This document shows, in pieces, positions 41,301-45,642 of a stretch of 52,286 nt of DNA (the first letter of the stretch is position 1; the number at the start of each line of letters is the position of its first letter). The stretch lies in assembly GCA_043821615.1 (NCBI GenBank), contig JBDRCS010000047.1:1-52286 (forward strand), given 5' to 3'. The DNA comes from Patescibacteria group bacterium. Its GTDB lineage: Bacteria > Patescibacteriota > Patescibacteriia > UBA9570 > JAHJKD01. A model generated the notes under the pieces. The model worked only from the letters and a program-made list of their open reading frames with translations. It did not search any database and was not told where the DNA came from. The position numbers and the translations under genes are program-made.

Positions 41301-41407
41301 CCAAAAAACCGCCGTTTTAGGCGGTCAACTTTTCACAAATAAAAGGCTACCTAAAACAAGTCGGGGTTAGGTAGTTTCTTTTTAAGTTGTGAAAATGTAT
41401 TGTTCAT
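41301..41407. repeat. Copy 1 of ~105-nt structured repeat (hairpin-terminator, long inverted repeat, 18-codon ORF)
   Basis: Core TTTTCACAAATAAAAGGCTACCTAAAACAAG...AAGTTGTGAAAAT is about 86 percent identical by hand alignment (about 67 of 78 positions) to 45565-45642. It is preceded by the CCGCC-loop-GGCGG hairpin. Confidence 0.8.
41351..41407 (-). CDS. Possible 18-aa peptide MNNTFSQLKKKLPNPDLF
   Basis: On the - strand: TTGACA, 17 nt, TATTAT, 6 nt, then ATG. There are 18 codons, TAG, then a CCGCC/GGCGG hairpin plus T6. A same-length ORF is preserved in copy 2. Confidence 0.3.
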   Translation of the reverse strand: MNNTFSQLKKKLPNPDLF

Positions 41408-41448
41408 ATATTAATAATATTTTAATATAAAAAATTTGTCAAATATTA

Positions 41449-42237
41449 TTATTTTACATCCTTTATTTTAATATTCGCACTACATAAATAATCAGGATAA
41501 TCAGATTCACCATTTGGCCTGACTACTGGGTATTGATAATTGCCCCCGCCTTCAATAAACTGATTTCTGCAACTCATGGGATTCCAGTGATTCCCGGCCG
41601 TATTGTGGAGAATTTTGGTTTTTTTTAGAACCACGCCTGGTTCGCCGCCGCCGGCAGTGGCCACAGCAAAAGAATATGGGCCAGGAGCGCTGTTGTATGA
41701 AATTGAACTATTTTTAATTATCCCGGTAATTCCTTCATCAATCCATATGCCGCCAGCCAGTCCCAGCCGGGCAATATTGTATTCAATCTTCACTTTTTTA
41801 AAGTCCATTGTGGTCTCGTCATAGGTTAATTGCAGGCCTCCAAAAGTATGGGCGCTATTTTTACTGATAGTTGTATTGGAAATTTTTATAGGACCGCCCT
41901 GAAAATAAATTCCGCCGGCTCCGCTTGGTTCAGTATTATCATCAGGATTTTCTTTCGGGGTCACATTATTTTTTGTAATTAATGACCGGTTAATAATCAT
42001 TGTGTCCACCCCGCTATAGGTGGTTCTAAACATTCCGCCTCCAAGGGCATTGGCCGTGTTGTTACTGACAGTTGATCCGCATAGAAAAAAATCTTGTTCT
42101 TGTCCGTCCATTAAAATTCCTCCGCCATTGCCGCCATGTCCCTGTTGGACATCTCTTTCATCCTGATAATTTGCGCCTTTTCCCAAGGCTTGATTATTCT
42201 TAATAGTAGAGTTGTAAATTTTTATGGAAGCATGCAA
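41449..42237 (-). CDS. C-terminal part of a PMP-like beta-helix surface protein (frame-shifted from 42222-43223)
   Basis: Repeats of the type GGG(I/M)...N(S/T)TI.(K/N)N. The reading frame joins the upstream ORF if the G8 tract at 42239-42246 gains one G. Confidence 0.6.
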   Translation of the reverse strand: MHASIKIYNSTIKNNQALGKGANYQDERDVQQGHGGNGGGILMDGQEQDFFLCGSTVSNNTANALGGGMFRTTYSGVDTMIINRSLITKNNVTPKENPDDNTEPSGAGGIYFQGGPIKISNTTISKNSAHTFGGLQLTYDETTMDFKKVKIEYNIARLGLAGGIWIDEGITGIIKNSSISYNSAPGPYSFAVATAGGGEPGVVLKKTKILHNTAGNHWNPMSCRNQFIEGGGNYQYPVVRPNGESDYPDYLCSANIKIKDVK

Positions 42238-43223
42238 ACCCCCCCCACAGCTCCTCCATTGGAGCAGCCATTGCCATCAAAAGTGCTATTAACCACTGTC
42301 ATGATGCCTCTCCCAACTCCATAAATGCCCCCGCCAGCTAAATCAGGTCCCCAGTCAGGACAATTATTATTAATAAAAGCATTATTAAAGGATTTAACAT
42401 TGCCGCCATAAAAGTAAATTGCTCCACCTCCACCATCAGCACCTGTGCCTAGATAATCACCATTTTCGTTATAGCGCGCATGTCCGCTAGATTGAGCATT
42501 CTTAAAAGTTAGGTTCACAACCGTAAGCGTAGGAGATAGTGATTCGAAATTTTCTGTATCCATCTTTAATATTCTAGTAGTCTTTCCACCACTTAAAGTA
42601 ATGTTATTTTCACCGTCAATAATTGTATCTTTGCTAGAATTTATATTCGCCTCACTTGTAAGTTTAATAATATGAGGTTTTTTGCCGCAATTAAATTTAA
42701 CTATCCCTCCTTGAGCTACGGCATTTTTAAAAGCTTGTTCTGTGCAGCTGGCTTTAGTTCCGTTACCCACCACTATATCCGGATTTGAAGTATTCGGAAC
42801 GCTGGGTTTAGATTTACACTTTAAAGGAAAGGGTCGGGGAGTAAACCATTTCTTTTTACTCCACTTGCCGTCCAGAGTTCTAACTCGTACAGCGTATCTT
42901 TTGTTTTTTATGTAACCAGCTTTTTTTCCTTTAATAATCTTAAAGTTTTCATCAGTTGAATAAGTTCTGATTTTTTTATAATTTTTCTTACACGTCTTGC
43001 ATTTTTTTAAAAGCTGCACCTGATATTCTTCTACGCCGGAAACATTTCCCCAATTTACCCTAATTCGGATTTTATCGTTTTCATTACTTAGTTTTTTAAC
43101 TTCAACATTCTGAACTTTTTGTAAAGTTCCACCACCCTGGCTATTAGGAGCAATCATAAATAAAAAACCAAAGAAACAAATAAAAGTTAATAAATAGAGG
43201 GGAAAATTATTTATTTTATTCAT
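42222..43223 (-). CDS. N-terminal part of a PMP-like beta-helix surface protein (signal peptide, Lys-rich Fn3-like module, GGAIY/FxxN repeats)
   Basis: Signal peptide MNKINNFPLYLLTFICFFGFLFMIA. A K-rich Fn3-like module follows, then GGGGAIYFYGGNVKSFNNAFINN, a GGAI plus FxxN motif pair. The ORF ends just after the homopolymer. Confidence 0.65.
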   Translation of the reverse strand: MNKINNFPLYLLTFICFFGFLFMIAPNSQGGGTLQKVQNVEVKKLSNENDKIRIRVNWGNVSGVEEYQVQLLKKCKTCKKNYKKIRTYSTDENFKIIKGKKAGYIKNKRYAVRVRTLDGKWSKKKWFTPRPFPLKCKSKPSVPNTSNPDIVVGNGTKASCTEQAFKNAVAQGGIVKFNCGKKPHIIKLTSEANINSSKDTIIDGENNITLSGGKTTRILKMDTENFESLSPTLTVVNLTFKNAQSSGHARYNENGDYLGTGADGGGGAIYFYGGNVKSFNNAFINNNCPDWGPDLAGGGIYGVGRGIMTVVNSTFDGNGCSNGGAVGGVCMLP

Positions 43224-43342
43224 ATTTACATTATAAAGAAAAAAATTATCCTAGTCTAATTAACCATATAAAAAGGCTGGCGGGTATTTTATATTAATAC
43301 AATGTGCTATAATCAATTCAGGTTTAAAATTAATATAAAAAA

Positions 43343-44371: not shown

Positions 44372-44389
44372 AAAATTATATATAAACTT

Positions 44390-45508
44390 ATGCGAAAGTT
44401 AATTTTAAGTAGTGTGATTTTCGGGGCCTTTGCAGTTTGTTTTACCCTGGCCGCCAATGCCGGCACCATCACCACTATTGAGATGGACGGCGATATGAGC
44501 GATTGGGATAATGTCCCGGCTTTGATCGATAAAGAGGCGCCCCAGCCGACTCTGGAAAATTCTACCAGTATCGGTACAACCCATTATTGGGACCATGACA
44601 GCCTTTCCTGGGCGGAGGGCGTGCCTGCGGAAAACGCCTGCATGTACAATGACATGCGCCCCTTGAAGGTTTATACGGTCAAGTTCGCCAATGACACAAA
44701 TTACATGTATTTTTATTGGAAGCGGAAAACCGATTTCATGGATTATTTTTGGGAGGATGGGGAAACTTTATCCGAAGCCGGCTTTACCGGCGAACCAGTT
44801 GAAGAAAACGAATTCGGCTCTGTGCCGCCGTGCTTGGGCGACACCATTTACAATCCCGCGGATTTCAACCATGACATGGTCTTCAGTTTTGACACCAATT
44901 TGGACGGGCTTTACGATTATTATTTGGTCATGAACGTGATTGCCCCCGAAGGTGCGCCCGGCGAAGCCTACGACTATTCCGTTAATTCCTACATCTATCA
45001 AGACAGCGGCAGCGGAATTTATGAAGGCCGCGATAATGAAATCTTGGTGGAAGACTTGGGCGATAATTACGAGCAGTATCCAAGTTCATCCGGCTGCCCC
45101 AATGGCGTTTGCCAGGAAGGCCGGATCGCCATGAGCAAATTTTTCGATGATTTGGAATTAAGCTGGAACGACACGGTCCAGGTCCAGTACGACGCCAGTA
45201 GCGAGGTTGCCTGGCACACGGCCGCCAACCTTTATTCCTTCAATCGGCACAACCATTTGAAATTTAAACTCACCAATCCTGCCAACCGCAAGACAGTCCA
45301 TAATAAAAAGGTGAGAATCAAGGGCACGATTAAAAAAGGCACGCGCCTGACGGTTTTGGTGAACGGGAGCAGAAAGGCCAGATTCACCACCAGCACCAAA
45401 TCCTTTGATAAAAAGGTCAGGGTTAAAAAAGGCTGGAACAATATCATTGTTAAAGCCAAGAAAGGTTCAAATAAAGTAGTTCGCGCCAGGAAAGTGAGAA
45501 GAAAGTGA
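44390..45508 (+). CDS. Secreted protein with Lys-rich Ig/Fn3-like C-terminal module
   Basis: Signal peptide, an acidic Asp/Tyr-rich core, and a C-terminal VRIKGTIKKGTRLTVLVNG...NNIIVKAKKG beta-sandwich-like segment. Confidence 0.5.
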   Translation: MRKLILSSVIFGAFAVCFTLAANAGTITTIEMDGDMSDWDNVPALIDKEAPQPTLENSTSIGTTHYWDHDSLSWAEGVPAENACMYNDMRPLKVYTVKFANDTNYMYFYWKRKTDFMDYFWEDGETLSEAGFTGEPVEENEFGSVPPCLGDTIYNPADFNHDMVFSFDTNLDGLYDYYLVMNVIAPEGAPGEAYDYSVNSYIYQDSGSGIYEGRDNEILVEDLGDNYEQYPSSSGCPNGVCQEGRIAMSKFFDDLELSWNDTVQVQYDASSEVAWHTAANLYSFNRHNHLKFKLTNPANRKTVHNKKVRIKGTIKKGTRLTVLVNGSRKARFTTSTKSFDKKVRVKKGWNNIIVKAKKGSNKVVRARKVRRK

Positions 45509-45527
45509 TTTCTTTCATTTAAGAATA

Positions 45528-45642
45528 CCAAAAAATTACCGCCGGCAATAAGCAGGCGGTTAATTTTTCACAAATAAAAGGCTGCCTAAAACAAGCCGGG
45601 TTTGGGATTTTTCCTTTTAAGTTGTGAAAATAGATTGTCCAT
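45528..45642. repeat. Copy 2 of ~105-nt structured repeat
   Basis: Same order of elements as copy 1, in direct orientation. The - strand ORF (45586-45642) reads MDNLFSQLKRKNPKPGLF. Confidence 0.8.

Follow-up and report, generated by a model that had tools for sequence, protein, structure and literature searches.

A lysine-codon leader that probably attenuates transcription of a formyltransferase-M23 peptidase operon in Patescibacteria, and its orphan duplicate

What is the role of a short structured repeat that carries an 18-codon open reading frame (ORF) and stands twice, in direct orientation, on either side of a block of surface-protein genes? The question is raised by contig JBDRCS010000047.1 (assembly GCA_043821615.1) of a groundwater bacterium of the Candidate Phyla Radiation (CPR), or Patescibacteria; its 52,286 nucleotides (nt) form the window analysed here. 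A first-pass annotation, made from the letters of the window, had offered three kinds of candidate for the repeat: a small peptide gene family, a structured small RNA (sRNA) or attenuator, and the recombination boundaries of a cassette. For the copy at the lower coordinates (copy 1) the attenuator proves to be the right candidate, as the same promoter, Lys-rich mini-ORF, antiterminator and terminator are found at eight other CPR loci. We consider it likely that copy 1 governs a formyltransferase-M23 peptidase(-GreA) operon by transcription attenuation, with a ribosome on a leader-peptide ORF as the sensor, and that the other copy (copy 2) is an orphan duplicate without a gene in cis.

Both full units lie on the minus strand, copy 1 at 41301-41442 and copy 2 at 45528-45677. 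Copy 1 begins 6 nt past the stop codon of a 262-amino-acid (aa) ORF, and its own ORF is co-oriented with the operon, which starts just downstream at 41248. Its parts are as follows.

41437..41442, minus strand: -35 hexamer TTGACA, of a promoter matching the consensus at 11 of 12 positions
41414..41419, minus strand: -10 hexamer TATTAT, 6 nt before the ATG
41351..41407, minus strand: leader ORF MNNTFSQLKKKLPNPDLF, 18 codons followed by TAG
41375..41383, minus strand: proposed control codons AAA AAG AAA (Lys-Lys-Lys)
41367..41395, minus strand: segment 1, the 5' half of a long hairpin seen in folds, overlapping the Lys codons
41330..41357, minus strand: segment 2, the 3' half of the long hairpin seen in folds, containing the antiterminator strand
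41350-41357, minus strand: antiterminator strand GTTTTAGG, overlapping the TAG stop
41314-41321, minus strand: CCTAAAAC, the partner of the antiterminator strand
41308..41326, minus strand: segments 3:4, the intrinsic terminator GACCGCC-TAAAAC-GGCGGTT
41301..41307, minus strand: T-run and conserved GG that close the repeat

Because the -10 hexamer stands 6 nt before the ATG, the transcript is predicted to be leaderless; no Shine-Dalgarno sequence was found in the 15 nt upstream of this ATG. The minus-strand fold of copy 1 is more stable than those of shuffled sequences (z = -3.9). Pairing of segments 1 and 2, through CTACCTAA/TTAGGTAG and outer stems, is clear in copy 1, weakened in copy 2, and weak or different in several of the orthologous leaders described below. 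A plus-strand reading of the element was rejected, since it leaves nothing at copy 1 to promote or terminate.

Does this arrangement belong to the operon? The formyltransferase has about 130 homologues, mostly in CPR bacteria, and we compared eight distinct CPR loci (L131-L137 and L140; the promoter region of L134 is missing at a contig end). At all eight, an M23 peptidase gene follows the formyltransferase gene (homologues 49-60% identical), and a K-rich short ORF, a terminator and a complementary segment lie upstream of the operon. The nucleotide sequences of these leaders cannot be aligned with copy 1; their architecture is the same. A perfect TTGACA is present in each of the seven leaders whose promoter is on the contig, and the start codon stands 6-9 nt past the -10 hexamer, without a Shine-Dalgarno sequence, in six of the seven relatives and in both window copies. 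The leader occupies a divergent intergenic region in 6/7 relatives. The orthologous ORFs have 17-27 codons, their Lys cluster begins at codon 7-12, and their terminators begin 22-34 nt past the stop codon. The peptides read as follows.

L132: MNIQIISSLKKKQPDTLF
L133: MNQQYLIILKKKQSDPMF
L131: MLNLVLQINKKKQDHQYWR
L135: MISQFFTKKSKTQLHLR
L137: MQLSLLKQKKAKKTSHTGKDSC
L140: VIAPPSLVGTVKSKKQTKTPHCGGTER
L136: MYYRHTTANGKKRFMRRRCLCMR
L134 (partial, N-terminal part missing): ...TKKGKMKSLRSR

The Lys run is KKK in copy 1, L131, L132 and L133, and KKSK, KQKKAKK or KSKKQTK in others. Taken as at least three Lys in a 4-residue window, a cluster is found in 6/7 independent lineages, against 0.2-3% of background windows per locus (stop-free windows of the same loci; product 3.7e-13). 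Outside this cluster the leader peptides share almost nothing.

A second regularity lies in the RNA. Every locus has, on or close to its stop codon, 6-9 nt complementary to its own terminator, in the 5' arm or the loop, and these segments differ completely in sequence between lineages. The segment overlaps the stop codon in seven of ten leaders, both window copies counted, and lies 1-6 codons upstream of the stop in L136, L137 and L140.

Copy 1: stop-region segment GTTTTAGG, terminator partner CCTAAAAC
L132: stop-region segment GTTCTAGG, terminator partner CCTAGAAC
L133: stop-region segment GTTCTAGGC, terminator partner GCCTAGAAT
L131: stop-region segment ATTGGCGGT, terminator partner ACCGCCGAT
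L134: stop-region segment TTCGAGG, terminator partner CCTCGAA
L136: near-stop segment GAGAAGGCG, terminator partner CGCCTTCTC
L137: near-stop segment GGGAAGGA, terminator partner TCCTTCCC
L140: near-stop segment GGAGGG, terminator partner CCCTCC

Between copy 1 and L132 the change is compensatory: a synonymous TTT>TTC in the last Phe codon has its counterpart in an A>G in the L132 terminator loop. A non-circular duplex test was made in eight independent lineages, in which a fixed 36-nt window ending 6 nt past each stop codon was paired with every terminator 5' half. The cognate duplex energies sum to -117.1 kcal/mol, whereas derangements give -69.2 +/- 7.1 (best, -95.5), and none of 14,833 derangements matched the cognate pairing. 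A control window downstream of the terminators showed no cognate advantage.

Constrained folds give the same picture. Without a ribosome, copy 1 forms the long 1:2 hairpin and the terminator. When a ribosome footprint was placed on the Lys cluster and the terminator 3' arm was left unmade, the antiterminator formed in 8/9 leaders folded, at -10 to -23 kcal/mol; the exception was L136, in which no antiterminator appeared in the constrained fold though its duplex was strong in the pairing test. With the full-length transcript and the ribosome on the Lys cluster, the antiterminator was the minimum-energy fold in four leaders (L131, L132, L133 and L137), and with the ribosome at the stop codon the terminator alone remained. 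The orthologous architecture and the locus-specific complementarity thus mark copy 1 as a probable leader-peptide attenuator, predicted to be leaderless, with Lys control codons. The first-pass annotation had argued, from the position of copy 2 in front of a convergent gene, that the element is not merely a leader; the argument does not hold for copy 1, which the orthologous operons show as a leader.

How would such a switch work? We infer that copy 1 is transcribed from its strong sigma-70-type promoter, with the RNA starting at or beside the AUG, and that the resulting mRNA is translated leaderless. A ribosome that passes the three Lys codons and reaches the UAG would cover GUUUUAGG; the terminator GACCGCC/GGCGGUU with its U-run would then form, and transcription would stop after about 105 nt. 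When charged tRNA-Lys is scarce, the ribosome would stall at AAA-AAG-AAA and melt the long hairpin, and the freed GUUUUAGG could pair with CCUAAAAC, that is, with the terminator 5' arm and loop, so that no terminator would form and the operon would be transcribed. In the absence of a ribosome, segment 1 would sequester segment 2 and termination would ensue.

Several observations weigh against this account. The copy 1 antiterminator, at about -10 kcal/mol, is weaker than the terminator and the alternative folds, and would win only kinetically, before the 3' arm is made; the antiterminator of the Escherichia coli trp leader likewise must win kinetically. L136 combines a mixed Lys/Arg cluster (GKKRFMRRR) with a 16-nt gap from the -10 hexamer to the ATG. 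The enzymes of the operon are not known lysine-biosynthesis enzymes, the window's own operon shows no direct tie to lysine, and the link between the Lys codons and operon function is indirect. As 26% of random sets of 13 substitutions keep the ORF, its being intact in both copies is no evidence in itself, and the duplication origin is read from the positions of the copies only. Finally, no RNA run was found to contain the stretch, and three metatranscriptomes of a related study yielded almost nothing from the organism, namely one 174-nt contig on the cyclodeaminase gene next to copy 2; in DNA, two runs contain the organism at 15-37x depth.

What, then, would the leader sense? The operon order at copy 1 is formyltransferase - M23 peptidase (- GreA), and the first two genes are the following.

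40373..41248, minus strand: first gene, PvdF-like formyltransferase, 291 aa, 58.6% guanine plus cytosine (GC), Pfam Formyl_trans_N
39623..40294, minus strand: second gene, M23 peptidase, in conserved synteny with the formyltransferase

Among solved structures the best match to the formyltransferase is that of PvdF (6cul; residues 21-270, nearly the whole protein, E = 3.5e-25). PvdF serves pyoverdine synthesis as N5-hydroxyornithine formyltransferase and acts on the ornithine side chain (PMC7926923). At L140 and at a further locus, L142, the leader is followed by aspartokinase - formyltransferase - M23 - M23 - homoserine dehydrogenase (L140:781-5930, L142:493-5642). The aspartokinase and homoserine dehydrogenase would tie this operon to aspartate-family (lysine) metabolism, and the gene order suggests that the function of the formyltransferase-M23 pair may be linked to aspartate-family amino acids. 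Most probably the leader senses how far tRNA-Lys is charged, because the Lys run alone is conserved in the peptides, because one lineage has the operon with aspartokinase and homoserine dehydrogenase, and because the formyltransferase resembles an enzyme that acts on the ornithine side chain.

It is rather unlikely that the mini-ORF and the switch are real and answer to a signal other than lysine supply, such as a poly-basic nascent chain, A-rich codons, the general capacity for translation, or, as in TnaC or SpeFL, a metabolite that is sensed jointly with the nascent peptide. The mixed cluster of L136, the K-R-K that copy 2 has in place of the Lys run, and regulated genes that are not classical Lys-biosynthesis genes would fit such a signal. 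However, Lys rather than Arg dominates in 6/7 lineages, arrest peptides need longer conserved motifs than these peptides share beyond their Lys cluster, and one version of the operon contains the aspartokinase and homoserine dehydrogenase genes.

The gene behind copy 1 had been taken, in the first-pass annotation, for a GC-rich foreign gene, which now appears doubtful. The formyltransferase gene is 7-22 GC points above its surroundings in six of nine loci, the window included (formyltransferase against M23 neighbour and flanks: L131 0.53/0.35, L132 0.615/0.42, L133 0.59/0.39, window 0.586/0.377); in L136, L137 and L140 it exceeds them by no more than 4-7 points, and the M23 neighbour is about equally GC-rich. 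Since high GC is common in the family, it is no sign of a recent insertion in the window, and since the M23 gene follows the formyltransferase gene at every locus, the supposed foreign gene is half of a conserved gene pair, which is preceded by a conserved leader. The GC oddity is family-wide, and repeated transfer or a constraint on the mRNA or protein could both account for it.

How, then, are the two copies related, and are there more? A repeat finder aligned 41319-41419 with 45554-45654 at 83% identity without gaps, and BLASTN gave 68 identical positions of 78 (87.2%) in the core, close to the 67 or so of 78, without indels, of the earlier count. Other particulars of the first-pass annotation were borne out as well: ATG plus 17 codons plus TAG in both copies on the minus strand, including the whole-codon change CTA>AAT; the TTGACA-17-TATTAT-6-ATG order at copy 1, to which identical geometry at copy 2 is now added; a terminator-like hairpin with a T-run after each ORF; an inverted repeat TTTTCACAA/TTGTGAAAA, imperfect and about 17 nt long, with an inner stem that is whole in copy 1 and keeps 4/8 pairs in copy 2; and the placement of the copies on both sides of 41449-45508. 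It had also proposed a search for further copies. An nhmmer profile of both copies found only these two in the window, and the contigs of eight whole metagenome runs holding the organism yielded, at 80% likeness or more, only both known copies, which close strains carry in identical form; no empty-site variant was seen in these contigs. DNA pattern scans of viral contigs, of the GTDB set with one genome per species and of JGI metagenome contigs, judged by the nhmmer profile, gave chance matches only. Two such matches were looked at and rejected as copies: one from JGI is a spacer of a clustered regularly interspaced short palindromic repeat (CRISPR) array with 19 nt shared by chance, and one from GTDB is an unrelated palindrome in a metagenome-assembled genome of Elusimicrobia. 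The element is absent from the nearest relatives that could be reached through ornithine cyclodeaminase synteny, whose enzymes are only 69% identical. In Rfam 15 no family matched the element at gathering or permissive thresholds; only tRNAs passed in the window, and the best sub-threshold scores were 18-22 bits against thresholds of 80-90.

These results bear on the idea that the copies regulate nothing and are repeats of a structural kind, either a unit like a repetitive extragenic palindrome (REP) or a miniature inverted-repeat transposable element (MITE), or the att boundaries of a 4.1-kilobase cassette. Direct repeats do flank a block of slightly GC-richer genes, the imperfect inverted repeat of about 17 nt is there, and hairpins stand at the 3' ends of genes on both sides. 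Nevertheless, we regard this idea as extremely improbable: eight whole assemblies hold two copies only, homology between the copies continues past the inverted repeat at both ends without a target-site duplication, scattered mismatches leave no exactly shared block of more than 19 nt, neither integrase nor transposase lies between the copies, and the same operon carries presumed functional orthologues of copy 1 in otherwise unrelated sequence. A MITE or REP was rejected on the copy number and on the homology past the inverted repeat. An attL/attR pair was likewise rejected, as 13 substitutions are scattered over the 87 aligned nt (longest exact block, 19 nt) and no recombinase lies between the copies; without an integrase and an exact core, the copies are not att sites. 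What survives of the proposed cassette boundary is its history, in that the duplication brackets an inserted block.

Copy 2 and the block between the copies are made up as follows.

45672..45677, minus strand: copy 2 -35 hexamer TTGATA
45649..45654, minus strand: copy 2 -10 hexamer TATTTT, 6 nt before the ATG, spacing 17
45586..45642, minus strand: copy 2 ORF MDNLFSQLKRKNPKPGLF, 18 codons followed by TAG, Lys run reduced to K-R-K
45538..45560, minus strand: copy 2 terminator hairpin ACCGCC..GGCGGT, flanked on opposite sides by an A-run and, at 45530-45535, a T-run
41449..45508: block between the copies, with ORFs of 262 and 333 aa on the minus strand and of 342 and 372 aa on the plus strand

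Copy 2 keeps the promoter, the ORF and the outer stems; its terminator is stronger and its antiterminator only irregular. Downstream on its strand lies the 3' end of the convergent 372-aa gene and no co-oriented gene, so that copy 2 is left without a cis target. The A-run and T-run that flank its hairpin allow the hairpin to terminate the 372-aa gene too. Copy 2 stands back-to-back with the promoter of the cyclodeaminase gene, like the divergent position of the leader in most relatives. The 4.1-kilobase block, somewhat GC-richer than the genome, would most likely have come between the ancestral leader and the second copy, and single-crossover integration of a circle with a diverged leader would yield a block between copies. 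Copy 2 would now make at most a short terminated RNA and a peptide, its hairpin also serving the convergent gene. Copy 2 may be a relic, with a hairpin that still ends transcription of both convergent units; alternatively, it may have taken on a function in trans or as antisense.

More ambitious roles can be imagined for copy 2. It could be a second working lysine sensor with another output, or a trans-acting RNA or peptide like rnTrpL or peTrpL, and, more broadly, Lys-codon leaderless attenuation could be a general mode of amino-acid sensing in CPR bacteria, met here beside a candidate Pro-codon leader on the ornithine cyclodeaminase gene; we hold this to be unlikely and put it forward as speculation. 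If it were true, scarcity of Lys-tRNA would cause read-through of copy 2, the resulting antisense or convergent transcription would enter the 3' end of the 372-aa gene, and a lysine-expensive surface protein would be shut down.

A different proposal is that both copies act primarily in trans, as sibling sRNAs of about 105-115 nt whose C-rich apex would meet G-rich ribosome-binding sites, the ORF being incidental. Each copy is indeed a self-contained unit of predicted promoter, about 110 nt and terminator, copy 2 is without a cis target, and CCCC or CCC motifs stand in the unpaired apex. The best in-window duplex of copy 2 reaches -37.5 against -25 +/- 3.5 for shuffles and beats 100/100 of them, and attenuator RNAs can act in trans, as rnTrpL does (PMC7968998). 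The duplex, however, falls on a tract of eight G (G8), which makes it a trivial pairing of a C-run with a G-run, and the target score of copy 1 is matched by 20% of shuffles. Moreover, what the orthologues keep is the ORF length, the Lys run and the complementarity between stop and terminator, not the C-rich apex or the long hairpin. An sRNA function as the primary one is, in our judgement, very unlikely.

Could the function lie in the 18-residue peptides themselves, as two paralogues of a small-protein family? In both copies the ORF is intact, equally long and leaderless in arrangement, and leader peptides can have trans functions (peTrpL, PMC7298713). Testing covariation against a codon-type substitution pattern had been suggested for this purpose; covariation between two sequences proved uninformative, and the codon pattern could be scored, though taken by themselves the two copies do not tell a peptide from an RNA function. 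The ORFs differ by 10 substitutions (codon positions 3:4:3), and six of the seven changed codons are non-synonymous against one synonymous, without a third-position excess. Divergence is 18.5% in the ORF against 10% in the non-coding 3' part, a difference that is not significant (Fisher's exact test, P = 0.36), and retention of the ORF is expected in 26% of cases under random substitution. The orthologues have only the Lys run in common. A functional peptide family is thus highly improbable, and of the first-pass candidate there stands a real ORF, as a leader peptide, whose length, Lys run and position are conserved and whose sequence is not. A hydrophobic type I toxin was also considered and rejected, the peptide being basic and hydrophilic.

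The block between the copies has features of its own. The last 80 or so residues of the 372-aa secreted protein (45250-45508, plus strand) are extremely Lys/Arg-rich, and their coding sequence is where antisense read-through from copy 2 would fall; a C-terminal Glucodextran_B-like domain was detected in this protein. The labels "PMP-like" and "PD40-like", given earlier to other proteins of the block, found no backing beyond sub-threshold Pfam matches. The G8 tract lies on the minus strand at 42238-42245, where the 333-aa and 262-aa ORFs overlap at GTGGGGGGGGTTTG; with one more G the two frames would join to encode a single beta-helix surface protein of about 590 aa. Phase variation of the homopolymer, a pseudogene and a shared assembly error are all conceivable. 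Two independent assemblies match the window here without gaps.

On the other side of copy 2, the cyclodeaminase gene (45958-46950, plus strand) has a candidate attenuator of its own in 45686-45957, back-to-back with copy 2.

Within 45686-45957, plus strand: promoter TTGACA-16-TATACT of the cyclodeaminase leader
45725-45820, plus strand: leader ORF MKNKISANLLFINTQPLPPAYSLYCPRCGRN*, 31 codons
45845-45860, plus strand: terminator of the cyclodeaminase leader

Relatives with cyclodeaminases of 67-69% identity have Pro-containing leaders, MEENIVTNYSASKRQPSQPPMFFIPPRCGRE and MMTRLLNLVNPSPRA, each followed by a terminator (L114:9800-10000, L115:9790-10000), and in the fold of L114 a ribosome positioned on the PP codons lets an antiterminator form. 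For this proline-forming enzyme the leader may work through its proline codons or as an arrest leader that senses ornithine. A G/C-rich hairpin, CTCTGAACCTCCCCATCTCCATT...AATGGAGAGGGGGAACAGAG (45875-45953, plus strand), stands immediately upstream of the Shine-Dalgarno sequence of the cyclodeaminase gene. Many different metagenome contigs with unrelated flanks match it, their depths adding up to more than 100 where the organism itself has about 7, which suggests a short motif that is common throughout these communities. Rfam gave no match for it, and the window contains it only once. Farther away, a close strain (99.6% identical) has about 375 extra bases with a 133-aa GIY-YIG/T5orf172-like ORF (37100-37155 against L001:10150-10523), an insertion beside tRNA-Tyr that fits a mobile element of the homing-endonuclease type. 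Positions 1-17000 of the window hold several paralogous Cys-rich genes with repeated blocks of 50-185 nt (families D1-D7), a multigene family unrelated to the leader repeat.

All together, the results point to a Lys-codon attenuator with a leaderless mini-ORF as its sensor, conserved across deeply divergent uncultured CPR/Patescibacteria, in which gene regulation is almost unknown. Its regulatory logic suggests a link of the formyltransferase-M23 operon to lysine or ornithine and the cell wall. Most described cases of leader-peptide attenuation concern Trp, His, Leu, Thr, Ile/Val and Phe and come from Proteobacteria and Actinobacteria, and for lysine the known sensor is a riboswitch. The mechanism itself is of a classical type; copy 1 stands apart in its control amino acid, its leaderless ORF, its host phylum and the genes it would regulate. 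A full-text literature search found no Lys-codon leader peptide and no leader peptide in CPR bacteria, and a 2010 survey had placed leader peptides in Proteobacteria, Actinobacteria and a few Firmicutes only (PMC2965389).

Copy 1 has the structural hallmarks of an attenuator, namely an upstream co-oriented ORF, a control-codon cluster, an intrinsic terminator and an antiterminator; copy 2 lacks a co-oriented operon. Like the trpL, hisL, leuL, thrL and pheL attenuators of enterobacteria (Rfam Trp_leader, His_leader), copy 1 has a short ORF with a run of control codons on which the position of the ribosome would decide the outcome, and a segment near the ORF end that pairs either upstream (1:2) or with the terminator 5' arm (2:3), against the terminator itself (3:4). 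Unlike them, it has Lys control codons and a leaderless rather than Shine-Dalgarno-led ORF, belongs to a CPR/Patescibacteria host, precedes a PvdF-like formyltransferase and M23 operon with no recognised biosynthetic pathway, and has no Rfam match. Leaderless polycysteine short ORFs of mycobacteria are reported to act as cysteine-responsive attenuators (bioRxiv 10.1101/834739). They too are leaderless, very short, built on consecutive codons for one amino acid and in control of downstream operon genes; the likeness is one of arrangement, and copy 1 differs in amino acid and phylum and in its evident canonical terminator and covarying antiterminator. A functional analogue is the L-box riboswitch upstream of lysC (PMC3384330), which brings about lysine-dependent termination before aspartokinase-type genes, such as the one that follows the leader in L140. 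The L-box, however, binds lysine directly through a five-way junction of about 180 nt, without translation, and this fold is not present here (no Rfam match). For copy 2 the precedent is trpL of Sinorhizobium meliloti, from which both a terminated RNA, rnTrpL, and a peptide, peTrpL, have effects in trans (PMC7968998, PMC7298713); an attenuator copy without a cis target could likewise still release a short terminated RNA and a peptide of 14-18 residues. Unlike there, a trans role of copy 2 is only a candidate, and copy 2 may be a relic; a duplicated and orphaned attenuator would nonetheless be one route from a cis-acting leader to an independent gene for a small RNA or peptide.

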